Positions 5,620 to 27,851 of a stretch of DNA of 32,357 bases are shown in pieces. The translations under genes and the position numbers were made by a program. This DNA is from a virus (Duplodnaviria > Heunggongvirae > Uroviricota > Caudoviricetes). Below the pieces are notes generated by a model. It was not told the DNA's origin, did no database searches, and was given only the letters and a program-made list of their open reading frames with translations. Location of the stretch: IMG/VR virus record IMGVR_UViG_2675903665_000002. The stretch is one strand, 5' to 3'. The number at the start of each line of letters is the position of its first letter. Position 1 is the stretch's first letter.

Positions 5620-5943
5620 AATCACGCCTGACGAATCGCGATTATCTCGCTATTGGTATTGCAGAGATTGCTGGACTCAGTGGCGCATGATTTGACAATG
5701 CCGCCAGAGCTATCGCATACTGACCGCACTAGAACTTCAAAGCGGTCACCCGCACCCGATAGCTTTGCGGCTTTTTTATGCCTGCAATTTGGCATAGTCA
5801 CATCCGTACAAAGGTCGGGTGGAGAGGCGTAATACAATACCCAAAAGGGGAATATGCCCGGAGCGTCTTTGAAGGCTCTAGTTGACACCCGATCACCAGC
5901 TACTAACTGGTGATTGCTAACTAAAACTTCAAAGGAGGTCATC

Positions 5944-6724: not shown

Positions 6725-7051
6725 ATGACAAAACTTGGATTCGTGATGAGAGGTCCGGTAAGAAGCGGAACTCATGCAAAGCGTAGCAAGAGTCGTATTT
6801 TTACTGGTAAGGTTGTAGCACGTAAATCAGCTATTGGCTCGTTCAATAGTGAAAATGCGGCATTGCGCCATATTTTTATCAGCACAAAGCCAAGAGCATC
6901 CGCTGATGTGCATACAATGTCTATTCCTATCACAAAGAATATAAAGCGGATAAAAAAGCTCTCATCTGCAGAATCAAAAGAGATATCTTTCCGCCAGCTT
7001 AACTCATTAGAAACGCATATGAAGGAAGAGGAATTCGATGTTTTTGAGTGA
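6725..7051 (+). CDS. Hypothetical small basic protein (108 aa), first gene of an AT-rich accessory pair
   Basis: GGAG SD 8 nt upstream of the ATG. AT-rich relative to flanking phage genes, with several AGA and ATA codons. Stop overlaps the start of the next gene. Confidence 0.6.
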   Translation: MTKLGFVMRGPVRSGTHAKRSKSRIFTGKVVARKSAIGSFNSENAALRHIFISTKPRASADVHTMSIPITKNIKRIKKLSSAESKEISFRQLNSLETHMKEEEFDVFE

Positions 7052-7550
7052 GTATAGCGGGAAGGTTATACCTACTGGTGAGTTTAAAACTGATGACTTT
7101 CTGATTTCGCTAAAAGATGCTTTTAAACAACACTGGCGTCATGGTCATCATCCTGATCTGGGAAAAGATACTCTTTTTGAAAGACCAGAGGAAGTATTAG
7201 GCTTCCATCTCAGAAAGGTTCATGTCAATATTGGTGAATATGCATCATATTCATACTCATGTACTGAACAGTGTTGGGATGAGTGGTCATATGGATTGAT
7301 TGATGAACAAGGAAATTACAGGCCAAAACCAACCAGTAACGCATATCTCATATATGCAGTCAATGAAATAAGAGATGCAGCCTTACTAGCTTATTGGGAC
7401 CCGCCCGCACACACCAAAGCTAACGCAAAAGTTTGGATGGATTCCGTATTGAATTTCACAAAATTATTTCATGAACGAACGAATACAGCTCCACTTAGTA
7501 GAAATGTTTATCCGTGGGATTATTCGTACAAATCCAAAAAGCCTGCATAG
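7038..7550 (+). CDS. Hypothetical protein (170 aa), second gene of the AT-rich accessory pair
   Basis: ATG 7038 with GAGG SD; overlaps the upstream gene by 14 nt. No family recognised. Confidence 0.6.
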   Translation: MFLSEYSGKVIPTGEFKTDDFLISLKDAFKQHWRHGHHPDLGKDTLFERPEEVLGFHLRKVHVNIGEYASYSYSCTEQCWDEWSYGLIDEQGNYRPKPTSNAYLIYAVNEIRDAALLAYWDPPAHTKANAKVWMDSVLNFTKLFHERTNTAPLSRNVYPWDYSYKSKKPA

Positions 7551-7816: not shown

Positions 7817-7832
7817 GTGACATGTCACACTA
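7817..7832. repeat. 16-mer GTGACATGTCACACTA, copy 1 (palindromic core TGTGACATGTCACA)
   Basis: Identical 16-mer recurs at 27852-27867. Both copies sit at a gene stop next to a - strand terminator, at the two boundaries of the structural operon. Confidence 0.6.
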
Positions 7833-8390
7833 CATTGATATATGATTCATAAAGTAGCTTAAAGATTTACTTCCCAGAAAAGAAATTTCTTTTCCTGGAT
7901 ATGTCGCAATAATTGAGCATGACTTATCCCCGTTAGAGGTAACAAATCCTGAATAACCTACTTGTTCTTTACCATTTTGTTGCTTGGCTAAAAAGTAGAG
8001 GTAGCTTATCTTTTTGCCCTCTGGGTAAAACTCTGCCAAACCAGTATCGGTGATTGAATATTTTATTCTCCCGCCTTGAGTAACGTTTTCCATCTCAAGT
8101 TTAGCTATGTCTTTTCTGTTGTATTCAGCATTGATTTTCCTTTCGAAATCAATGTTGTTTTCAAATGAGTAGGAAGCAACAGTCTGAATAGATGGGAACA
8201 CGTTTATCTGGATGCCTCCACAGTCGGCACAGGTATAAAGGTATGAATCAGATGGAATCCCCATAAAAGAAAACTGAGTTACCTTAAATTTATCGCTATC
8301 TCCAAAGTATTGAAGTTCGCATTTAACATTTTGCCCTGCAAAAGAAAATGCAGACATCAATATTGAAACAAAAAATATAATTGCCTTCAT
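7830..8390 (-). CDS. Secreted or lipoprotein-like accessory protein (186 aa), AT-rich
   Basis: N-terminal signal peptide MKAIIFFVSILMSAFSFAGQ. Last gene of the - strand operon. Composition differs from the neighbouring structural genes. Confidence 0.6.
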   Translation of the reverse strand: MKAIIFFVSILMSAFSFAGQNVKCELQYFGDSDKFKVTQFSFMGIPSDSYLYTCADCGGIQINVFPSIQTVASYSFENNIDFERKINAEYNRKDIAKLEMENVTQGGRIKYSITDTGLAEFYPEGKKISYLYFLAKQQNGKEQVGYSGFVTSNGDKSCSIIATYPGKEISFLGSKSLSYFMNHISM

Positions 8391-8392
8391 TA

Positions 8393-10945
8393 TTATTTAC
8401 CTAGCATGAACTGCGATGGTGGGATCAGAAAGTCGTTACCCTGCTCACGCTCAACACGGCGCTGATAACGCTCAAGAGAGCCTGGGTCAAGGGCATCTTG
8501 TATCCGGTTCAATATTAAACCATTCATCGCCGTACGAAGCCAGAACACGTTGAGGAATGGCGTATTGTCAAGTGCCGTGCGATACCAGTCACCCAAATCT
8601 GCATCCCCTCTCGTGGTCTGCTGGAGCAGCGTGATAATGCTGTCAGCGTTCGATGCTGCTGGCCCCATTAGCGACGTAACCGGCCCGGCCCCCATGCGGT
8701 TGACCTCGCCAAACATGAAGTCACCCAAGATGCCAAGACCGCCCCCCTGAGATGCGGCTGCGAGAAACGTCTTGGCATCTGCCGGGCGTGGTGTTTGCCC
8801 TTTCAGCATGAGTTTTGACTGCATGGAGATATAACCAAACATAGTCGCCCAGACAAAGAGGTTTGCAGCACCAAGGAAAGCCCCCTTCCCGTTACGTAGC
8901 AGCGCATTCGTCAGCGATCCGGTTTTCGACTCACCAAGCCCAGCAGGAATATAACCACGCCCGAATACTTCGCGTCCTAGTACGTTCTGCATGAAGCTTG
9001 CAGTGAACGATTTGTACTGACCAGCGAATCGTATTGCTTCCCCAGCCACCGTTCCTGGCACCGTGCCCATCTTCATAAACGCCTGCGTGCGATCGCCAGG
9101 CTCTGACATGGCGATATTCAGGCGGTCAAGGATGTAGCCGCGCAACTGCCCTTCCAATTGATCGCGTGCGTCAGCGATAGCGCGCTGCGTTGGTTTGATC
9201 CCCTTACTCTCTACATAACCGGCAATCACTTCGTCAGGCACGCCGCGGATGCCGCTGGTCGTCATGAACTTACGACCTTCGCTATCGGCCATGTCCATGT
9301 TGCGAAAAATTTCCCACTCACGTTCGCCAATACCGTGCAGATCCAGCACGCGTCGCAGGTCTTCCGGTAGCCGCGCATGAGACTGGTCAGCATTCTTTGC
9401 AAGCCAGTTGGTTATCATCATGGCGTTGCTGTTGCGACCGCTCTCGGTCCAGAAGTTCATGAGGTTGTACTTAAAGAAAAGCTGCTGCGCGCGACCAAGC
9501 TTTCCATTCAGCGTGTCATCACCAGATATGCGCCGGATGATTTCCTGCGTCATGGAGTCGGAATAAACTCCGATAGAGGAAAGGATCTCTTTCTGCTCCG
9601 CGCTGTTGTAACGCGTGAAGCGGCCTCTCATAGCACCAAGCAACGCCTGCATAAAATTCTGCCCTTGGTAGCGCATCTCGGTAGCGGCGATAGGCACGTC
9701 GTTAAACGATGAGATTACCGCGCCACCAAGTTGGCTCATACGCAACCAGCCGCGTACAGCCGCCGACGCATTGGCCCAGCCTACGCTGCCAGGAATATTT
9801 AGCGAGCCGTCAACCTGCGGCATTACGGTACGGTTAATGCGACGCACCTTCGTCATGTAGTCAGCCAACGCTGCCGGTCTTCCGGATTTGCTGATATCTT
9901 CAGCAATGGCGTCCGTCAGGTACTTAAACATGTTCTGTGGGTTAGTGCCCAGTACGCGCATCATGCCCGTTGTGCGGGCAGCGCTGTTTAAGCCACCAAA
10001 CAGCGCTTCTCGCAGGCTGCCGGTGCCGAATTGCTGGTTGTACTCGTGCCACGAGATACCATCTTTGAAGTGCAAAATTCGCTCTTGGCTGGCGCGTTTA
10101 GCTGCGTTCGCCGATCCCTTAAAGCCATTCATCCAATCGGGCTTTTCAGATGTAAGATGCACGCCGGAAGCCAGCCCGTTATAAATGTTACGCGTGAACT
10201 GCTCGCGGTCAGCCACGCCGTCAAAAGTGCGCTCATCAAGGCGCGGGAGAATAGCATTTCGCCATGCTTCATAACCTGCGGCGCGGATCTTCATGATGTC
10301 GTGTGACTGGCGCACTATATAGCCCGGCTCTTTGCGTATCCATGCCCCGGCGCGGTTCTCATCAATGCGCGCAGTTTCCTGCCATTTCATGATGATTTGT
10401 GCAGCGCTTACGGATTGCTTTGTCATACCGTCAGTTGACTGCCCGCGCCCTATGCGCCACATTGCATCGGCAATTTCCCGGTCATTGCTGCCGCTGGCGA
10501 TGAATTGCACCAGCCCGGCACGGTCAAAATCGTAGTTGATACCGGAATGATACTTGCCGCGCAGTTGCGCCACCTCCGAAGATACCGACCGGCGGGCGCC
10601 GGTACGCGCATCGTTGCGGCCAACCAGCATTGCTTCAAGCCCGATATCCGGGCGGTCTTTCCAGATAGTACGAAGCTCTCTAAGTCGTTGTGCGGCAATA
10701 CGGGCGTTGATTGCCTTATTGCGAGCCTCAATCTGTTTTGCCAGCATATCGGCATTGCTCAGTTCTTCCGCTGCGCGCATCGCGGCCTCTTCCAGAGACA
10801 GCGCCTCATTGGTCGCCAGAATTCGCCTAGTGGTGTCGTTCATGTCACGCACCAGCGACTCCATCTCATCGGAAGAAAGCTCGCGACCAGCGGCAGCATT
10901 TACACTGCGCTCGCACTGCGTCAAAAATTCGTTTGCTGCCATCAC
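8393..10945 (-). CDS. Large internal virion / DNA-ejection protein (850 aa)
   Basis: Position at the end of the internal-core protein block. Start overlaps the upstream stop (ATGA). Confidence 0.55.
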   Translation of the reverse strand: MMAANEFLTQCERSVNAAAGRELSSDEMESLVRDMNDTTRRILATNEALSLEEAAMRAAEELSNADMLAKQIEARNKAINARIAAQRLRELRTIWKDRPDIGLEAMLVGRNDARTGARRSVSSEVAQLRGKYHSGINYDFDRAGLVQFIASGSNDREIADAMWRIGRGQSTDGMTKQSVSAAQIIMKWQETARIDENRAGAWIRKEPGYIVRQSHDIMKIRAAGYEAWRNAILPRLDERTFDGVADREQFTRNIYNGLASGVHLTSEKPDWMNGFKGSANAAKRASQERILHFKDGISWHEYNQQFGTGSLREALFGGLNSAARTTGMMRVLGTNPQNMFKYLTDAIAEDISKSGRPAALADYMTKVRRINRTVMPQVDGSLNIPGSVGWANASAAVRGWLRMSQLGGAVISSFNDVPIAATEMRYQGQNFMQALLGAMRGRFTRYNSAEQKEILSSIGVYSDSMTQEIIRRISGDDTLNGKLGRAQQLFFKYNLMNFWTESGRNSNAMMITNWLAKNADQSHARLPEDLRRVLDLHGIGEREWEIFRNMDMADSEGRKFMTTSGIRGVPDEVIAGYVESKGIKPTQRAIADARDQLEGQLRGYILDRLNIAMSEPGDRTQAFMKMGTVPGTVAGEAIRFAGQYKSFTASFMQNVLGREVFGRGYIPAGLGESKTGSLTNALLRNGKGAFLGAANLFVWATMFGYISMQSKLMLKGQTPRPADAKTFLAAASQGGGLGILGDFMFGEVNRMGAGPVTSLMGPAASNADSIITLLQQTTRGDADLGDWYRTALDNTPFLNVFWLRTAMNGLILNRIQDALDPGSLERYQRRVEREQGNDFLIPPSQFMLGK

Positions 10946-21941: not shown

Positions 21942-22234
21942 TCCTGTTCACTGGCCTCTTTGGCCATCTTCAAATACTGTTCAGGGCAATGCGCCATAAC
22001 GCGCTGAAACAGTTCCAGCGCCAGATTGCGTTGCCCCTCATTAAATGCCATTGCCATAGCGTCCATCGGTGAGATAGCGGAAAACACACGGCCTTTCTCC
22101 AGCACCGACCAGACAACGCGACGCCCCTGTTCACTGCTCATGACAAAGCGAATGTCATCAATTTCACGCTGTGCCATGTCACGTTGCTTACGGGCGTTTT
22201 CTTCTTTCAGTTGATCATCTTCGTAATCTGTCAT
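21938..22234 (-). CDS. Hypothetical small head-module protein (98 aa)
   Basis: Overlapping start/stop with both the portal and scaffold genes. Confidence 0.45.
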   Translation of the reverse strand: MTDYEDDQLKEENARKQRDMAQREIDDIRFVMSSEQGRRVVWSVLEKGRVFSAISPMDAMAMAFNEGQRNLALELFQRVMAHCPEQYLKMAKEASEQE

Positions 22235-23910
22235 TGTGATTGCCCACCCTGACCACTAACTGCATTCGCCATAGCTGACAAAACACTCGGATCCGAAGTT
22301 TTAGCTTCGCTTAGCGTCTTGGCACCCTGTGCCGCCGCCATCCCCATCGCCATCATTTGTTGCTGCTGTTGTTGCTGTGCCCGTTGCTGGCGAGCCTGCT
22401 CAACCTGTTCCTGCGGAACAATGACGGTTGGAGACACTCCGGACATATCAGCGAATGCATCGATCGCCTGATCAACGTTGAGTTTGTCGAGAGCTTCTGG
22501 TTTCGCTTGCGCAAGTTGACCAATGAAGTTAACCGTGGACGCCAGACTGGACAGGCCGATAGACTTCTGCGCCTGAGCCATGACGGAAATGTATTCGACC
22601 TTCAGGGGCATGCCTTCCATCGCGTCAGGCGGTGGCGGCAGCATGTTTTTGCGCACCATCATCGAGAAAGCGCGGTCAATGAGAGGATTAAGACATTCGT
22701 CGTTCAGACGCTCCAGAACCGGCCCCAACATCAGAAGTTTTTCTTCTTTCATTTCGATCACCGCTTCAACAGGCATCGAGCGGGTATTGATGTTCTGCAA
22801 CATCATGAACAGATCGACAAAGTAGGCGCTGTTAATGATTTGACGAGTGTCCTGAATGTCTGCCACCAAATCTGCTGTACTGGGGTTAACCAGATAAGCA
22901 GGCCTGAAGCCATCCTGACCAGTAATCTGATCGATATACGTGATGTCGCCAGGAAGAAGGGAGGCGCGCTGATTCTTGAGGGAAGTCGGAGCAACCATCG
23001 GCGGATTGGTGGCTTTATCAATCAACTGCGACTTGCGCTTCTGGAGAAGCTGCAATGCCTTAACAGGTCCAAGCGCCAGCATACCCGGGCATGATGATCC
23101 ATAAACATCTTCGCCGTTAACTTCCCAGCGCGGAGCCATAATTGGAAACTCATCGAATCCGGACTCACGCAACAACTTGTCGTTATCGCCACCAACCTCG
23201 TAATAAACCGATTTGAATGGCTTGTTCTTGCTATCCAGCTTCGATGTATCGCGGTCAATGTTCGGGTAAACCGAATGCATCACTTCGATCCACTTCTCGT
23301 AGGTGCCGCTTTCCCACATGCTTTTTACGGATTCGCTGACGTTATTTAGCCCGAACTCCTGAACAAGCTGACGAACAGTCATAGAGAACTTGCGAAAACA
23401 GGTGTCAACACTGCCACGAGGTGAGTTAGCCAGGTAGTAACTGCCTATCGGGAATGGCATTGTGCGAATGATGTCCTCGTCATCCTCCAGCACTGCCATT
23501 GCACCAGTGCTGTATGTGCCGAGGCTTCCGTATAACTGCGGAAGAGACTGGTAGAGATTCGACTTATTGAACATATCGTTCATGCGGTTCTGAACTGCCT
23601 CAAGCCACAACTTAACAGGGCCATAATCCATCATTTCAGGATCTGGCGTAGCCAGGCGAAACCACGGACGCGCGGGGCTTGTGATGCCTGACATCATGCC
23701 GCTGGCGAGAGTGCGCGCCGCCATAGTCCCGGTCGAATCAATAATGCGTGTATTGCGCCGATCGTTACGGTTGGCCTCAGAAGTCAGAAAGCGGGAACCA
23801 CGCGGGTTGATGTAATCACTCAACTCGCGCCAGTGCGGCTCGAACGACTGACGCTCGCTTTCAAGTTGTGCGAACTGTTTGTTCAATCGCTCTTTAGTTG
23901 TTTCCGCCAT
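22231..23910 (-). CDS. Portal (head-to-tail connector) protein
   Basis: 559 aa. N-terminal region resembles the podovirus head-to-tail connector family. Gln-rich C-terminal tail. Sits upstream of scaffold and capsid. Confidence 0.8.
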   Translation of the reverse strand: MAETTKERLNKQFAQLESERQSFEPHWRELSDYINPRGSRFLTSEANRNDRRNTRIIDSTGTMAARTLASGMMSGITSPARPWFRLATPDPEMMDYGPVKLWLEAVQNRMNDMFNKSNLYQSLPQLYGSLGTYSTGAMAVLEDDEDIIRTMPFPIGSYYLANSPRGSVDTCFRKFSMTVRQLVQEFGLNNVSESVKSMWESGTYEKWIEVMHSVYPNIDRDTSKLDSKNKPFKSVYYEVGGDNDKLLRESGFDEFPIMAPRWEVNGEDVYGSSCPGMLALGPVKALQLLQKRKSQLIDKATNPPMVAPTSLKNQRASLLPGDITYIDQITGQDGFRPAYLVNPSTADLVADIQDTRQIINSAYFVDLFMMLQNINTRSMPVEAVIEMKEEKLLMLGPVLERLNDECLNPLIDRAFSMMVRKNMLPPPPDAMEGMPLKVEYISVMAQAQKSIGLSSLASTVNFIGQLAQAKPEALDKLNVDQAIDAFADMSGVSPTVIVPQEQVEQARQQRAQQQQQQQMMAMGMAAAQGAKTLSEAKTSDPSVLSAMANAVSGQGGQSQ

Positions 23911-23924
23911 TTCAATGACTCCGG

Positions 23925-24131
23925 TTACTGACCAAGCAGCGTTTTACCGCTGGTATTAGCGGTTGATGTGTCGCCCTGAGAACCGGTAAGCAGCGTAGAA
24001 CTACGACCAGCAGCAGCGCGACGGCGACGTGTTTCTTCGTCGCGGGCATCAACAACGGCGGCATCCTGCTCCTGTGGTGCTGCCTGAACTTCTGGTGTTG
24101 CAGGCACTGATGGTGAGCTACCCATGCACAT
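23925..24131 (-). CDS. Small hypothetical protein (68 aa) upstream of the portal gene
   Basis: ATG at 24131 with GGAG SD 8 nt upstream. The alternative overlapping frame 23912..24151 looks less protein-like. Confidence 0.35.
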   Translation of the reverse strand: MCMGSSPSVPATPEVQAAPQEQDAAVVDARDEETRRRRAAAGRSSTLLTGSQGDTSTANTSGKTLLGQ

Positions 24132-24199
24132 ATCAATGACTCCGTACGCAATTAAATTATTACCAATTTAACCACATATGATTTATTTATCGTAGAAGG

Positions 24200-24236
24200 T
24201 TGACATTTAACGCGTGAATTATTACCTTTCGGGTAA
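24200..24236 (+). promoter_or_regulatory. Promoter (TTGACA at 24200-24205) with perfect operator for the tRNA transcription unit
   Basis: TTACCtttcgGGTAA at 24222-24236 positioned where a -10 element would be expected. Confidence 0.55.
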
Positions 24237-24558
24237 CCAAAGAGCTCATTCCGGTTACTAACCTGACTGGCTTGTCGTTAAATTAAACAGGTGGAGTGAG
24301 CTTTTATTTTGAGCAGTACGGCGTATGGCACATGCGCCGATAGCGGTCTGGATACGTTTAAGGGGCACCCTCCCTTGCTCGGGCAAACGAACCAGGTAGC
24401 CGGAATGTGCAAGTCGAGCGGTTTTATTCCGCGCACGGGGATTCACCATCCCGGCGATTCGGTGTGACGCCTCGGAAGAGACGAGGGTACAACGATGAGA
24501 GCATTTATGGAGCCGCGACAAAGTGTGGCGCCTTAACAGGCTAAGTGCTCTCAGCGTT

Positions 24559-24635
24559 GTGGCATTAGCTCAGTTGGACAGAGCAACCGCCTTCTAAGCG
24601 GTTGGTCGCAGGTTCGAATCCTGCATGCCACGCCA
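24559..24635 (+). tRNA. argU: tRNA-Arg (anticodon UCU), argU-like
   Basis: 77 nt. 7-bp acceptor stem GTGGCAT/ATGCCAC, D-arm GCTCAGTTGGACAGAGC, anticodon arm ACCGC-CTTCTAA-GCGGT (anticodon TCT), T-arm GCAGG-TTCGAAT-CCTGC, discriminator G plus CCA. Near-identical in arrangement to E. coli argU. Confidence 0.95.
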
Positions 24636-24678
24636 GAATCACGCCTAAGGACCGTGATGCCAGAAGTTCCAGGTGCTT

Positions 24679-24721
24679 GGCGGTGATGGTTTCCCTTGAA
24701 GGACTATCACCGCCCTTTTTA
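24679..24721 (+). terminator. Intrinsic terminator downstream of the tRNA
   Basis: GGCGGTGAT...ATCACCGCC stem followed by CTTTTTA. Confidence 0.65.
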
Positions 24722-24798
24722 CAGCAGGACGCCATTGCGATGACTTCATGCTGTAAACCCGTACAGCCACGGAAGGCATAACTCATTGCTTCCAGTTC

Positions 24799-24822
24799 GC
24801 CCGGTTCGCCGGGCATTTTTTT
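24799..24822 (+). terminator. Intrinsic terminator (GCCCGG-TTCG-CCGGGC plus T8)
   Basis: 6-bp GC stem with TTCG tetraloop followed by ATTTTTTT. Confidence 0.8.
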
Positions 24823-24838
24823 GCTTGATGACCGCAAA

Positions 24839-24857
24839 TTACCTTAAAGGTATAATC
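24839..24857 (+). promoter_or_regulatory. Near-consensus operator (TTACCttaaaGGTAT, 9/10) fused to TATAAT, directly upstream of the membrane-protein gene
   Basis: Same TTAAA spacer as the 6668 site. TATAAT at 24851-24856. Confidence 0.5.
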
Positions 24858-25676
24858 ATGAAAAACTTCAAGGTAATTAGCATGTTTGAATCGTTTAAAG
24901 AGCTGTTTTTATCTACTGCCAATACTGCCGTGAATCGAGCCAAAAACCCTGTGCTTGGTGCTTTTGTTATGTCCTGGTGCGCCTTCAACTGGAAATCAAT
25001 TCTTTATCTATTTTTTAGCAAATCAAACATAATAGATAAAATTTCATATATCTCAGATAACAGCACATGGAAAACTGTTATGTTTTATCCATGCTTATCT
25101 GTAATTGCTATCTGCTGCCTATTACCATGGGTAAACAATATCATTAACGTATGGCAAGCAAAGCCTCTTGATAATAATGACTCAATCGAAAATCACCTGA
25201 AGGCAAGAAAAATCCAGCGTGAAACCAGACTGCAGAGGTTATTGGCTAAAAAAGATGTTACATACGACAAAGTTAAGACTGGCGCGGAAAAAGACATCCA
25301 AGAGATGAAAGAAGAGATTATTCGATCAAAGAATAGTATGGGGGAATTGACTGCTGAGTTGAAAGCTAAAGATGACGAATTGAGATCCGCCAGTGCTCAG
25401 TTAGCAGCTCTAAATCATTCATTAAAAGAGATATCGGAAACTCTTGGAAGAATGAATGAGGCATATAAGACCCTCCAAAATGATTTCGACGAATACAAAC
25501 TCAAATACCCTGAAAAATCTCAAATAAAAAGTCTTGCACTTGGCAACGGCCAAACAATTAGCAACTTTTTGGAGCAACACAACTTATCCGGATTAAAATC
25601 TGGTAAGCCAGACGTTTTTAATAACTTTGGTGTTCTATCTGGATTATCAGGTTTCGAGGATAAAAATAAAGACTAA
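24858..25676 (+). CDS. Accessory membrane protein: two predicted TM helices followed by a long coiled-coil; AT-rich
   Basis: Hydrophobic segments VLGAFVMSWCAFNWKSILYLFF and VMFYPCLSVIAICCLLPWV, then a charged heptad-like region. Opposite strand to the structural genes. Start may be ATG 24882 if TATAAT is the -10. Confidence 0.6.
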   Translation: MKNFKVISMFESFKELFLSTANTAVNRAKNPVLGAFVMSWCAFNWKSILYLFFSKSNIIDKISYISDNSTWKTVMFYPCLSVIAICCLLPWVNNIINVWQAKPLDNNDSIENHLKARKIQRETRLQRLLAKKDVTYDKVKTGAEKDIQEMKEEIIRSKNSMGELTAELKAKDDELRSASAQLAALNHSLKEISETLGRMNEAYKTLQNDFDEYKLKYPEKSQIKSLALGNGQTISNFLEQHNLSGLKSGKPDVFNNFGVLSGLSGFEDKNKD

Positions 25677-27148
25677 GCATATGGATCGTACTCGGTAAGC
25701 GCCTTGCCTTGCTGGTTCTGCTGCCCGGGAAGTCGCAGGCGCTTCGACACCGGGAAAGCAAACGTCAGCAGCAGCGCATCGCCTTTACCCGGCGAACGCC
25801 CAAGTCGCTCTTTGATATCTTCCTTCGGTTCGATAACGATTTTACCGTCCACTCGAACTTTGTACTCTGCCGCCGACAGGTCGTCTGCAGTTTCCTGGTC
25901 ATCCAGCATGCCGCCCAGCCTCAGCCATGTCTTACATGAGTTGAACATCTCCCCACGCTTGTTGAGCATCTGCGGGTCAGTAGACGCGCCACCGAACGGA
26001 ACAAGTTGCCATGTACGACCCCAGCCGTCACCGATTGACTTCAGACCAGTTCCGTAACCGAAGTCGATGAACACTGCGTCAGCCTGGTACTGGTCTTCAA
26101 AGTCAGCGATACGCTTCGCCATAATCAGATCGTCAGTGGTCTTGTTGCCAGTCCACAGCACCTTACTGTGCAGCCCCTGCCGCAGGTATATCACAGCGTC
26201 ATCAACGCCTGAGTATGCCGGGTCAACGCCGATTATCACCGGAGCATGTGCAACCTGCGCAGCGGTGACCACCCGTTTCATTGCCTCGTCAGTAAGTCCG
26301 GTAGGGATAAACTGCAATTCAGATGCATCCGGGAATATGCCGCGCACACGGATTTTAACGAAGTCGCTGTCTTCCCCGTAGTCATCAACCCATTTCTGCA
26401 ACTGCTGTTTGTTGGTGCCTTCCACCGTCCGGCTGTCAATCTGCGCAGTTTTCCAGCGGTGTTTATATTTGCGGAAACATTCGCGGAAACGTCCGGTATT
26501 ACGCGTCGGGTTTCCGAACGCCACCCAGATAATCTCAGTGTCTTCGTCCGTTAGCGCACCCTCGGCAACTTCCCACACCAGATCCGCAATGTTCGACGCT
26601 TCATCGAATACCACGATGATGCGTTTGCGCTCGTTGTGTAGTCCGGCGAATGCCTCAGTGTTGTGCTCAGACCAGGGTATTGCGTCAGCTCGCCACCGCT
26701 TGTCGTGTCCAGGATCATTGCTGTACATCGCGGTAGCGGTACAGGTAAACCAGTCTTTCGTGATAGCAAGGTTCGACCACTTGATAATTTCCGGCCAGGT
26801 CTTCGTTCGTAGCTGGTTGTCGGTGTTGGCGGTCACCACAACCTTACAATCCTCGCAAGTGGACATGCCCCAGTTGATCAGCATTGAGATGAATGCGGAT
26901 TTACCAATACCGTGACCCGAAGCGCGTGCCAGCATAAGCGGCTGATAGCGCGTCTCTGGATTCTGCAGGTGATCACGTATCTCTCGGAACGCATCAGCCT
27001 GCCACTGACGTGGACCGGTGGCATGTGCCAGTTCAGTCCCATCTTCCCCCCACGGGAACGCATAGAGGGCATAGCCAAGCGGATCGTGAGTGAACCCTGC
27101 AATATCCTCGATTAACTGCTCTTCAGGAGATAACGCTGTATCTGTCAC
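25673..27148 (-). CDS. Terminase large subunit
   Basis: 491 aa. Walker A-like SGHGIGKS in the N-terminal ATPase region and an acidic nuclease-type C-terminal region. Start overlaps the terS stop. Confidence 0.85.
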   Translation of the reverse strand: MTDTALSPEEQLIEDIAGFTHDPLGYALYAFPWGEDGTELAHATGPRQWQADAFREIRDHLQNPETRYQPLMLARASGHGIGKSAFISMLINWGMSTCEDCKVVVTANTDNQLRTKTWPEIIKWSNLAITKDWFTCTATAMYSNDPGHDKRWRADAIPWSEHNTEAFAGLHNERKRIIVVFDEASNIADLVWEVAEGALTDEDTEIIWVAFGNPTRNTGRFRECFRKYKHRWKTAQIDSRTVEGTNKQQLQKWVDDYGEDSDFVKIRVRGIFPDASELQFIPTGLTDEAMKRVVTAAQVAHAPVIIGVDPAYSGVDDAVIYLRQGLHSKVLWTGNKTTDDLIMAKRIADFEDQYQADAVFIDFGYGTGLKSIGDGWGRTWQLVPFGGASTDPQMLNKRGEMFNSCKTWLRLGGMLDDQETADDLSAAEYKVRVDGKIVIEPKEDIKERLGRSPGKGDALLLTFAFPVSKRLRLPGQQNQQGKALTEYDPYA

Positions 27149-27741
27149 TGATTACCATCCTGACGTTCTTTGAGTCGCTTCCTGGCTGCTGCTATGCGAT
27201 CAGCAATTGTCACATTCACATTAACATCCAGACGTTCTTTGAATGCGTTGACATCAACATGCTTACCAATCAGCTCAAGGTTCTTCACCTTGTCAGGCCA
27301 TTTAATTTTTTTGAGGATTGTCTCTATTGAATCCTCGTTCATGTTCATGATGGTCGATGACAGATCAAAGCCACTAAGCGTAGTGCGCCAGATTTTCGGC
27401 CACTCACGGATTGGTTTAAGGCTCCCATCGTCGTTGAGGATGTCGATCACGTCCATCTGGTCGATCTCCACCAGGCGCATGAGAACGTAATCAGCACTGA
27501 CACGCATTCGTTTGTTGCGCTCCTCCATCAACTCGGCAATCCGTTTCTGAATGCGTTCATCGCGCATCATGACACTGGCTTTAACTGCCGCTGTATTTGG
27601 GGAGAATCCTGCGTTAATCGCAGCCTGAGTCTGGTTTTCAGGCGTTTTGATGTATGACTGGCAATAAGCCTCCTGCATTGCTGTGAGCGGCTTAAATTGC
27701 GTTGATTTGCGTTTATAGGTTTTAGGTTCAGCAGGCATCAT
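27145..27741 (-). CDS. Terminase small subunit
   Basis: N-terminal LTAMQEAYCQSYIKTPENQTQAAINAGFSPNTAAVKA... resembles the Terminase_2-type small subunit. Start set at ATG 27741 (MMPAEP..., GGTGG SD) rather than the TTG at 27819. Confidence 0.75.
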   Translation of the reverse strand: MMPAEPKTYKRKSTQFKPLTAMQEAYCQSYIKTPENQTQAAINAGFSPNTAAVKASVMMRDERIQKRIAELMEERNKRMRVSADYVLMRLVEIDQMDVIDILNDDGSLKPIREWPKIWRTTLSGFDLSSTIMNMNEDSIETILKKIKWPDKVKNLELIGKHVDVNAFKERLDVNVNVTIADRIAAARKRLKERQDGNQ

Positions 27742-27758
27742 AACCACCGTGGTAATTG

Positions 27759-27781
27759 TTACCGTTGTGGTAATAATACCA
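27759..27781 (-). promoter_or_regulatory. Candidate late promoter: extended -10 (TGgTATTAT on the - strand) overlapped by a perfect operator
   Basis: TTACCgttgtGGTAA at 27759-27773. The - strand reads catgGTATTATTACC, so the operator covers the predicted start site 18 nt upstream of terS. Confidence 0.5.
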
Positions 27782-27783
27782 TG

Positions 27784-27810
27784 CAAAATAAAGCCGCCAT
27801 AGTTGGCGGC
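27784..27810 (-). terminator. Intrinsic terminator on the - strand immediately upstream of the terS promoter region
   Basis: GCCGCC-atagtt-GGCGGC hairpin followed on the - strand by TTTATTTTG. Confidence 0.6.
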
Positions 27811-27851
27811 AGTATTCAAAATCCATCAAATTCATCATGCATAATCTACTC

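Follow-up and report, generated by a model that had tools for sequence, protein, structure and literature searches.

A widespread structured RNA core precedes a tRNA-Arg(UCU) gene in a repressor-controlled phage transcription unit

The locus studied here raises the question of what a leader of several hundred nucleotides is for when it stands in front of a phage tRNA-Arg(UCU) gene. It occupies positions 24200-24822 of a 32,357-nt stretch of DNA from a Caudoviricetes record (IMGVR_UViG_2675903665_000002), referred to below as the window; features are on the plus strand unless stated otherwise.

The repressor-controlled unit and its tRNA-Arg gene

An early-type promoter was read from the letters at 24200-24228, with a -35 TTGACA (24200-24205), a 17-nt spacer and a weak -10 TACCTT (24223-24228). 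It was not called by a consensus scan because the -10 matches at only three of six positions. At the same distance from the conserved RNA core described below, homologous copies carry TTGACA-17-GATATT (SPN1S) and TTGACC-17-GATACT (the lambdoid copy L017). The -10 is overlapped by a repressor operator, TTACCTTTCGGGTAA (24222-24236), which is a perfect TTACC-N5-GGTAA palindrome. Both elements had already been proposed in a reading made from the sequence only, and both were found in place. With up to one mismatch allowed, the palindrome occurred 13 times in the window versus 0.41 times expected, and none of 100 shuffles reached 13; we therefore regard the matches as a real operator network. In the epsilon15 record a repressor site is annotated in the homologous spacer.

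Two intrinsic terminators had also been proposed, and a terminator scan found both. T1 (24679-24722) consists of a 14-bp stem (24679-24714) followed by a U-run, and its 5' stem, UUGGCGGU, is conserved throughout the family. T2 (24799-24822) is formed by GCCCGG-UUCG-CCGGGC (24799-24814) and U7. With a GC-rich hairpin followed by a U-run, T1 and T2 are predicted to be rho-independent. Of 109 copies, 76 had a T1-type terminator no more than 800 nt away. The stretch 24200-24822 is a repressor-controlled transcription unit, and its RNA carries, in this order, a 5' hairpin, the core, a helix termed P6, a tRNA slot, and a 3' hairpin with the terminator(s).

The tRNA itself was called by ARAGORN as tRNA-Arg(tct) at 24559-24635, plus strand, and matched the Rfam tRNA model RF00005 with 73.3 bits (E 2e-14; gathering score 29), in agreement with the earlier call. 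It is about 82% identical to K-12 argU (b0536) and has the same D-arm, anticodon loop and T-arm. When four sequences were aligned, 61 of 77 columns were invariant, and the differences, which are paired, fell in the acceptor and anticodon stems. The 3' CCA is encoded. Judged from its sequence this is a real, ordinary, argU-like gene that looks functional. This part of the locus is already known from relatives: an argU-like tRNA-Arg(UCU) is annotated at the same locus, in a region 98% identical, in the O157 typing phages 9/10, SPC32H and Klebsiella ST512-KPC3phi13.3.

Enrichment of AGA codons in the AT-rich accessory genes was borne out by a codon-usage comparison. ORFs with a GC fraction of at most 0.41 contained 16.2 AGA per 1000 codons versus 3.9 in the rest (Fisher p = 6e-5), and AGA made up 41% of their arginine codons versus 6% (p = 3e-8). 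Adjacent to the unit lies downstream cargo (24828-25676) with a promoter-like ATGACC-17-TATAAT (24828-24856), an operator, TTACCTTAAAGGTAT (24839-24853), and an AT-rich ORF (24858-25676) for 272 aa with a membrane N-terminus and a coiled coil. Searches of Pfam and PADLOC for the identity of this ORF gave weak coiled-coil matches only. Its 11 arginine codons include four AGA and one AGG. That the phage tRNA aids AGA-rich accessory genes is plausible and fits these codon counts.

Fold of the leader RNA and its flanking modules

From a predicted start near 24235 to 24558 the leader measures about 324 nt, and it folded better than shuffled sequence (z = -3.98). It contains short ORFs only, with TTG or GTG starts, and these are not kept open in relatives. 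The sequence-only reading had seen no convincing ORF here and had suggested a structured RNA; on both points it agrees with the ORF analysis, the folding score and the covariation of the helices reported below. The Rfam/Infernal search that it proposed recovered the tRNA but placed the leader in no family: the Rfam 15 scan of 24236-24558 returned nothing at the gathering threshold and nothing at E up to 10, with C4, YrlA, riboswitches and ribozymes included. A tmRNA was not found by ARAGORN.

Within the leader, the conserved core (24316-24496, about 170 nt) was described with a covariance model, R1, which comprises helices P1 to P5 and two pseudoknots, and the window copy scored 147.4 bits (E 3e-47). 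P1 pairs 24319-24325 with 24333-24339, and P2 pairs 24347-24351 with 24392-24396 round a variable hairpin. The junction, GGUAGCCGGAAUGUGCAAG (24395-24413), consists of 19 invariant bases, and it is invariant from phages of E. coli to a phage listed for Stenotrophomonas. The first pseudoknot, PK1, joins 24328-24332 to 24406-24410. P3 (about 24413-24436) is variable, P4 pairs 24438-24441 with 24449-24452, and the second pseudoknot, PK2, joins 24444-24447 to 24461-24464. P5 (24470-24474 with 24482-24486) is a 5-bp hairpin with a GAAGAGA loop, and it is swapped for a different hairpin in about 12 of 119 copies.

In 36 diverse copies, 97.9% of the cells were paired and 12 pairs showed compensatory change, a result that none of 500 shuffles reached. 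PK1, being invariant, offers no covariation, and in PK2 three sequences carry a compensatory change of a single type, from C-G to A-U. The G-U pairs of the core are consistent with the plus strand only. By the model, the core is a member of the family that R1 defines, with the order P1-P2-junction-P3-P4/PK2-P5 and covariation.

The plus-strand pairing bears on an annotation found in some relatives. An opposite-strand CDS is annotated in mEp460 (mEp460_037) and in Ayreon, and in the window the corresponding minus-strand ORF spans 24258-24521 (87 aa, TTG start), so that a small protein might be encoded where we describe an RNA. This ORF is stop-free over the core in about two thirds of the copies, although in a GC-rich stretch of 170 nt such a test does not discriminate. 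Against it, the ORF is interrupted in about one third of the copies, length differences in the variable hairpins are not multiples of three, the helix substitutions are compensatory with G-U pairs on the plus strand only, and most annotators call nothing at the core. On the interruptions and the covariation we rejected the ORF, and we give the protein practically no credence.

Modules lie on both sides of the core. The 5' hairpin (24239-24305, containing the GUCGUUAAAU region) has a basal stem of about 12 bp formed by the inverted repeat 24240-24252/24293-24305, with compensatory change in two of 12 pairs. Uetakevirus relatives keep this hairpin, and lambdoid copies, L017 for example, also have it 3' of the terminator; the epsilon15 record (NC_004775) labels its counterpart there as an RNase III site. 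On the other side, P6 (24489-24560) pairs 24489-24507 with 24542-24560, an inverted repeat of 19 nt with 89% complementarity, and encloses a variable insert. Compensatory changes preserve the P6 helix across 21 distinct pairs of strands, and its final two nucleotides are the first two of the tRNA. The tRNA slot (24559-24635) is filled by tRNA-Arg(UCU) in the window, and a comparison of slots found it elsewhere to hold a tRNA-like structure or to be empty. A 3' hairpin, AUCACG-N9-CGUGAU (24638-24658), follows the slot, whether tRNA or tRNA-like, in many copies, tRNA-less ones included.

The leader had been framed as an appendage of the tRNA, and the contents of the slot in 120 IMG/VR copies contradict this. 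A tRNA-Arg follows the core in 23 of them, and a tRNA-Ile(CAU) gene precedes it in 16. Among the remaining 81, there were 73 with a tRNA-like structure or no recognisable slot, seven cut by a contig end and one unclassified; the tRNA-like slot was present in 41 of the 120. The distribution of the core, with at least 73 of 120 copies lacking a tRNA gene, also largely refutes the suggestion of a processed leader. A leader that is simply the 5' precursor of the tRNA, a scaffold for processing and otherwise functionless, would agree with its co-transcription with the tRNA and with P6 abutting the RNase P site. We nevertheless consider it very improbable, given those same copies without an adjacent tRNA gene and a core that is far more conserved than its flanks, with an invariant junction and covarying helices. 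The leader is an independent, very widespread RNA element, and the tRNA is better viewed as cargo in one of its slots.

Spread and genomic position of the RNA family

An exact 17-mer of the core was found in more than 120 IMG/VR phage contigs, and at least three of the four other conserved blocks were present in all 119 copies that could be assessed. Among complete E. coli genomes the core was found in 1064 of 5426 (about one in five), and it was never annotated there. Carriers include lambdoid, P1-like, epsilon15-like and Lastavirus phages and 2H10. A 15-mer pattern run over 596 Gb of genome contigs gave at least 120 matches, mostly due to chance, and among the matches listed at least eight species representatives, all Enterobacteriaceae, were confirmed with R1; the taxonomic range is under-sampled by this search. 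A full-text literature search with conserved core sequence strings returned no paper, and keyword searches on P1 transcriptomes and on lambdoid prophage RNAs, antiterminators or structured, returned nothing relevant. From these sequence searches, the core family is a large, unannotated one in temperate enterobacterial phages.

In lambdoid prophages the core lies directly after cI and the PL operators, the place of the nutL/N site in lambda and of putL in HK022. The operators and promoter are 35-50 nt 5' of the core, and in mEp460 the core begins about 40 nt past a promoter with two operators of the same kind as the cI-cro operator. Among 46 distinct same-strand upstream proteins, 39 were S24/HTH cI-type repressors, which are 11-21% identical to the first. 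The conserved terminator is situated between the core and the first early-left gene, and no other operator-bearing promoter was visible between the two. Among the first and second ORFs downstream, 56 distinct ones were compared with Pfam and PHROGs and none matched an N-type antiterminator, and the first gene product of mEp460 is acidic and not N-like. Internal terminators were not clearly over-represented in the operons that follow the core in mEp460 and L017, as judged by a simple scan that is blind to T1 (loop of more than 8 nt).

Other copies are placed differently. In the window the unit belongs to an epsilon15-like phage and lies between the terminase and portal genes, not in a PL operon. 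That location prompted us to consider a packaging RNA of the phi29 pRNA kind, which was rejected: lambdoid and P1 copies lie elsewhere, and epsilon15 has lost the element. In P1 the core is located 2.3 kb inside the ban operon, without P6 and without a terminator after it. Epsilon15 retains a decayed remnant that scores only 42 bits with R1, and the core is dispensable in this phage group because nothing more than this remnant was kept.

Possible modes of action

By positional analogy we tentatively favour, at somewhat less than an even chance, a core that is a cis-acting read-through RNA of the put kind, punctuated by RNase P and the tRNA, with the released tRNA-Arg decoding AGA. The core would act in cis on the transcribing RNA polymerase as a processivity or antitermination RNA, either independently of protein or with a host factor, and would be a functional analogue of HK022 putL or of lambda nutL with N. 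After starting at the early promoter, polymerase would read past T1 and T2 and transcribe what lies beyond. In the window this would be the accessory gene(s), in P1 it would be ban, and in lambdoid prophages the early-left genes. The tRNA or tRNA-like structure would be excised by RNase P and 3' processing, which would set the 3' end of the core and P6, and the freed tRNA-Arg would decode AGA, which E. coli uses rarely and in which the AT-rich accessory genes are enriched. The 19 invariant unpaired junction bases fit binding to a conserved host machine.

Several observations at individual loci speak against such a role. In the window the unit is closed by T1 and T2, and the next gene is preceded by a promoter-like site and an operator of its own; polymerase reading through would run antisense into terminase genes on the other strand. 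More generally, the epsilon15 group dispenses with the element, the P1 core has neither P6 nor a later terminator, and the flanking tRNA, tRNA-like and RNase III-type modules would suit a discrete trans-acting RNA equally well.

Such an RNA is the main rival to the read-through reading. The core and P6 would be cut out by RNase III (in P1, by tRNA processing) and RNase P as a stable early-lytic RNA that binds or sequesters a host nuclease, a defence system or an RNA-binding protein, and the terminator would merely end the gene. In favour of this, the element is a mobile module found in unrelated phage types (lambdoid, P1-like, epsilon15-like and Lastavirus) and is dispensable in epsilon15; in the window it stands alone with its own promoter and two terminators. 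Its flanks are of a processing type, with a tRNA 3' of it here, the tRNA-like slot in the 41 copies mentioned above, the RNase III-type hairpin, and tRNA-Ile(CAU) immediately 5' in P1-type copies, where the neighbours in P1 are accessory RNAs and tRNAs. A trans-acting RNA would, however, leave unexplained the consistent first place of the core in PL transcripts of dozens of immunity types, and also how PL transcription passes a conserved terminator without an N-type gene. Furthermore, no partner or target sequence could be proposed for it. We hold it possible but doubtful.

A third reading takes the core as a sensor, a riboswitch-like or factor-binding attenuator that governs stopping at T1 and so makes expression of the early operon respond to a metabolite or to host state. 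A compact pseudoknotted fold with many invariant unpaired bases, as in aptamers, and a conserved terminator downstream would suit this. The gap between core and T1, however, measures 150-400 nt and is made up of variable modules (the P6 insert, the tRNA or tRNA-like slot, the hairpin). By eye, neither a conserved alternative pairing between the core and T1 nor a complement to the T1 5' stem was found, P1-type copies are without a terminator after the core, and no Rfam riboswitch model matches. This makes a sensor improbable.

The read-through reading draws on a likeness to known systems. The put RNAs (putL and putR) of HK022 and HK639 are cis-acting antiterminators that bind the beta' zinc-binding domain of RNA polymerase (PMC9378689). 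The core shares their place in N-less lambdoid phages, directly 3' of PL and after a cI-type repressor, and HK639 has an annotated putL-like RNA at the place matching that of the core. Each is a structured RNA whose unpaired bases are very conserved, and each has a terminator downstream. Short collinear likenesses are seen as well: in both, ACGGCG...CAUGCGUCG forms a CGGCG/CGUCG helix, and GGAAGAG is found in HK639. Read-through caused by put is blocked by rpoC mutations in the zinc-binding domain. They differ in that put is about 70 nt (126 nt as annotated in HK639) with two stem-loops, whereas the core has about 170 nt, five helices and two pseudoknots, to which P6 and the tRNA slot are added. 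Unlike put, the core family is also present outside lambdoid PL leaders, in P1 and epsilon15-like phages. R1 gave no match to HK022 putL or to the annotated HK639 putL-like RNA with filters at default or off, and therefore the resemblance to put comes down to a few short motifs seen by eye. The invariant 17-mer is not in HK022 or HK639. Homology to put was rejected after BLAST against the HK022 immunity region gave a chance 14-mer inside nun and R1 gave no match. By model search, then, the core is not a put family member. A 2025 paper (PMC12315714) points out that phage LLS lacks an N homolog and might rely on a put-like RNA; it names 2H10, in which we found the core, only for having the closest relative of the LLS late Q protein.

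As with nutL in lambda, the core is the first element transcribed from PL. Its P5 loop starts with GAAGA, in the manner of boxB of lambda nutL, and in some copies the 3' strand of P6 contains UGCUCUUU, which resembles boxA and is followed by a GU-rich stretch. In contrast to lambda nut/N and the rrn boxB-boxA-boxC, the boxA-like bases are buried in P6 and the core is far larger than a nut site. A further difference from lambda is that no N-type gene lies downstream of the core and that P5 differs in about 10% of the copies.

In its widest form, which we regard as unlikely, the read-through reading would make the core a second, protein-free class of termination-resistance RNA for E. coli-type RNA polymerase, one that replaces N/nut at PL in many lambdoid prophages and is far commoner than put, and whose tRNA-like/RNase P slot captured tRNA-Arg in epsilon15-like phages. 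If the core is an antiterminator, it would account for early-left expression in a large group of lambdoid phages that lack N, among them Stx2c and some Stx2a converting phages, and RNA polymerase would have a second natural RNA able to reprogram it. If it is instead a trans-acting early RNA, it would be a candidate for a host-takeover or anti-defence RNA. Under either reading a very common, conserved prophage RNA of E. coli, Salmonella, Klebsiella and relatives has so far been unannotated, or in places wrongly entered as a hypothetical protein of the opposite strand, and the family merits an Rfam entry.

Phage RNAs matured by RNase P include C4 of P1/P7 and CI of P4, and tRNA-punctuated RNAs include the species 1/2 RNAs of the T4 tRNA cluster and the eukaryotic MALAT1-mascRNA. 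The element resembles these in that a non-coding RNA adjoins a tRNA or tRNA-like structure, where RNase P could set an end. The core is likewise phage-encoded and repressor-controlled, with P1 among its carriers. It has no similarity to them by sequence or model; the Rfam C4 model did not hit the leader even with E allowed up to 10. The P1 copy has further accessory RNAs and tRNAs as neighbours, a dicF-like region included. In the window a real tRNA, the tRNA-Arg, would have been taken up into a tRNA-shaped slot at which a phage RNA is processed.

Setting and control elements of the tRNA-Arg unit

The tRNA-Arg(UCU) unit (24200-24822) lies on the plus strand and is flanked by minus-strand genes, the terminase genes (25673-27819) on one side and a small head gene and the portal gene (22231-24151) on the other. 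It is therefore an insert of opposite orientation within the structural gene block. The region 24150-24850 was 98% identical to Escherichia phage phiV10, the O157 typing phages 9 and 10 and other epsilon15-like podophages (Uetakevirus), and many E. coli chromosomes carry prophage copies that are 100% identical. The sequence-only reading had proposed an argU-like tRNA behind a TTGACA promoter with a perfect operator and followed by two intrinsic terminators, and all of these elements were recovered. Both ARAGORN and Rfam called the tRNA at 24559-24635, with about 82% identity to argU of K-12, identical loops and T-arm, compensated stem changes and an encoded CCA. The perfect -35 box TTGACA (24200-24205) is followed after 17 nt by a weak -10 box, TACCTT, which is why the promoter was missing from a consensus scan list. 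The palindrome TTACCTTTCGGGTAA (24222-24236) overlaps this -10 box. The window holds 13 palindromes of the type TTACC-N5-GGTAA (681, 1018, 1066, 1778, 1840, 6668, 8014, 24222, 24839, 27741, 27759, 31048 and 31110), where 0.41 would be expected, and this excess marks the one at 24222 as the operator of the phage repressor. Four sets are paired (1018/1066, 1778/1840, 27741/27759 and 31048/31110), and together the thirteen sites look like the marks of a genome-wide repressor regulon. The epsilon15 record has a repressor site annotated in the homologous spacer. Two terminator-like hairpins with U-runs, T1 (24679-24714) and T2 (24799-24814), follow the tRNA. The tRNA and its control elements are thus ordinary and already annotated in relatives. 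Between T1 and T2 an 18-nt inverted repeat (UUUACAGCAGGACGCCAU / AUGACUUCAUGCUGUAAA; 24718-24757, plus strand) was seen, which starts inside the T1 U-run and is kept in relatives sharing T1.

A conserved RNA fold in the leader

The part of the leader at 24316-24496, here called the core, has counterparts of about 82% identity immediately after cI in lambdoid phages (mEp460, cdtI, 2H10, Ayreon, Stx2c phages and some Stx2a phages). In phages P1, P7 and relatives the matching sequence (about 80% identity) is unannotated and lies between a tRNA-Ile gene and ban. Phages of Klebsiella, Salmonella and Enterobacter gave weaker matches, as did one phage listed for Stenotrophomonas. Alignment of twelve core sequences gave invariant blocks with hairpins of variable length and sequence between them, a pattern characteristic of an RNA rather than a protein. 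The most conserved block, the 17-mer GTAGCCGGAATGTGCAA (24396-24412), occurs exactly in at least 120 IMG/VR contigs, and at least three of the four other conserved blocks were present in 119 of 119 assessable copies among the matches listed.

A structure was derived on 36 diverse copies. It consists of hairpin P1 with the invariant loop UGGCACA, helix P2 around a variable hairpin, the invariant junction GGUAGCCGGAAUGUGCAAG, the variable hairpin P3, hairpin P4, with a loop that forms pseudoknot PK2 with a GGUG further downstream, and hairpin P5 with the loop GAAGAGA. Standard pairs made up 97.9% of cells and compensatory changes were found in 12 pairs; none of 500 shuffles reached the observed values, and the signal was lost when the partners were slid. 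Three sequences with a C-G to A-U exchange support PK2. The P1 loop possibly forms a second pseudoknot (PK1) with the junction; PK1 is invariant and hence shows no covariation. With R1, the covariance model of the core, the window copy scored 147 bits (24316-24496), and there was one copy per locus. The existence and fold of the RNA family are close to certain. The G-U pairs are consistent with the plus strand only, and a protein encoded on the minus strand is scarcely credible. Two phage records have a hypothetical protein annotated on the wrong strand of the element.

The Rfam 15 search of the leader gave no family matches at E up to 10, the full-text literature search did not find the conserved sequences of the core, and no RefSeq annotation lies over it among the matches listed (1064 E. 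coli genomes). The leader is a member of a widespread, apparently undescribed family of structured phage RNAs. Elsewhere in the window, 5813-5902 (plus strand) matched sRNA-Xcc1 (RF02221; 62.9 bits, gathering score 53), unrelated to the leader RNA. Coding sequences for a 'hypothetical protein' overlap the element in mEp460 (mEp460_037; L002 3943-4311, minus, on the opposite strand) and Tyrion (gp54; L006 2711-2872), and one lies under the core match in Ayreon; these are probably mis-annotations.

Modular surroundings and genomic position

Downstream of P5 follows the long helix P6 (24489-24507 with 24542-24560), the last two bases of which are the first two of the tRNA. P6 was kept across 21 different strand pairs with compensatory changes, and the copies diverge directly after it (…GUUGU/GG). 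Among the 120 IMG/VR copies classified from the matches listed, the slot after P6 held tRNA-Arg(UCU) in 23 and a tRNA-shaped structure that is not a tRNA in 41, while 32 had no recognisable slot. Another 16 were of the phage P1 type, in which P6 is missing and a tRNA-Ile(CAU) gene stops about 15 nt short of the core; seven were cut by the contig end and one was unclassified. In the tRNA-shaped structure an acceptor-like GUGGUGA…UCACCAC leads into A-rich bases and CCA, hairpins take the D-arm and T-arm positions, and the centre is variable. Because slot contents differ, the tRNA is better described as cargo in a modular RNA element: the suggestion of a structured RNA held, whereas that of a leader belonging to a tRNA did not. 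That the leader is a mere tRNA precursor segment is accordingly very unlikely. In some copies the variable insert of P6 contains T-arm-like hairpins, such as GCGGTTCGATTCCGC and CTGGTTCAATTCCAG (SPN1S, L008 ~2680-2770; also L103, L107 and L080), which suggest tRNA-derived fragments or further tRNA-like modules.

The slot is followed by a conserved 3' hairpin, AUCACG…CGUGAU (24638-24658), and then by T1, a terminator with the conserved 5' stem UUGGCGGU; T1 was present in 76 of 109 copies. A separate conserved 5' hairpin (24239-24305), whose equivalent the epsilon15 record labels an RNase III site, precedes the core. Epsilon15-like phages have this module (GUCGUUAAAU region) ahead of the core and some lambdoid copies have it beyond T1 (L017 ~9258-9345), so that the leaders resemble mosaics in which RNA modules have been shuffled. 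Epsilon15 itself has only a truncated, decayed core remnant (L004 2548-2640; 42 bits with R1), despite which it keeps the 5' hairpin, a terminator and an accessory gene downstream.

The element was found in Enterobacteriaceae prophages of Escherichia, Salmonella, Klebsiella, Enterobacter, Citrobacter, Kosakonia, Phytobacter, Kluyvera and Superficieibacter. Just upstream of the core, 39 of 46 distinct same-strand proteins were S24-peptidase/HTH repressors of the cI type. Apart from a handful of close relatives these were mostly only 11-21% identical to the first, and many different immunity types are therefore represented. In mEp460 the cI stop codon is followed by the cI terminator, two operators of the same kind as that between cI and cro, a promoter and, about 40 nt on, the core; then come P6, a tRNA-like slot, T1 and the first early-left gene, whose product is acidic and not N-like. 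In the lambdoid copy L017, TTGACC-17-GATACT precedes the core. The first and second ORFs downstream of the core, 56 distinct ones in all, were compared with Pfam and PHROGs, and no N-type antiterminator was matched. The lambdoid copies thus occupy the place of nutL and N in lambda, and of the annotated putL-like RNA in HK639. In phage P1 (NC_005856 71023-71191) the core occupies the interval from trnI to ban, which carries no feature in this otherwise well-annotated record. The ban operon is C1-controlled and also includes a dicF-like region and two further tRNAs.

Possible function in early transcription

The family may be a kind of early-leader regulatory RNAs of temperate phages. The put RNAs of HK022 and HK639 make the transcribing polymerase read through terminators (PMC9378689), and the core could likewise act in cis on the polymerase so that T1, and T2 in the window, are passed. 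RNase P and 3' processing would excise the tRNA or tRNA-like slot, as in established tRNA processing, and also trim the core and P6 RNA. Read-through is proposed because the core is consistently the first RNA made from PL, a conserved terminator stands before the early genes, N is lacking and unpaired bases are extremely conserved. This scheme, including slot excision and AGA decoding, is the likeliest reading, and we hold it only tentatively for four reasons. The unit in the window is seemingly self-contained, since it has a promoter and operator of its own and two terminators, and the next gene also has a promoter-like site and operator; read-through there would oppose the terminase genes as antisense transcription; the element has been lost from epsilon15; and its place in phage P1 is far within the ban operon. 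The main rival, in which the RNA is processed and acts in trans early on, fits each of these four points at least as well, and we consider it somewhat doubtful overall. A ligand- or factor-sensing attenuator ahead of T1 is unlikely.

At best the element works like put or nut, and it is a member of neither family. R1 did not match the put sites in HK022 and HK639, even with filters off, the invariant 17-mer is absent from both phages, and put differs from the core in size and architecture. The putL helix C10-G14/C30-G34 nevertheless has the same sequence as the CGGCG/CGUCG helix of P1, followed by CAUG, and GGAAGAG occurs in HK639; this short collinear resemblance could stem from a remote shared ancestor, from convergence or from chance. 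The P5 loop (GAAGA…) recalls boxB of lambda and UGCUCUUU in the 3' strand of P6 recalls boxA, but no N gene was found and the boxA-like bases are buried in P6.

The released tRNA-Arg may help to decode AGA in the accessory genes. The enrichment of AGA in AT-rich accessory genes, noted by eye in the sequence-only reading, was borne out by codon usage, which differed between the ORF groups: low-GC ORFs had 16.2 AGA per 1000 codons vs 3.9 (p = 6e-5), and AGA made up 41% vs 6% of their Arg codons (p = 3e-8). The adjacent ORF 24858-25676 counts among the enriched ORFs. Further AT-rich (GC 0.35-0.40), AGA-rich accessory ORFs were seen at 6725-7051 (plus), 7038-7550 (plus) and 7830-8390 (minus); for that at 7038-7550, Pfam gave a weak match to the YafO toxin (E 7e-4) whose 20 bits fall short of the cut-off of 25.
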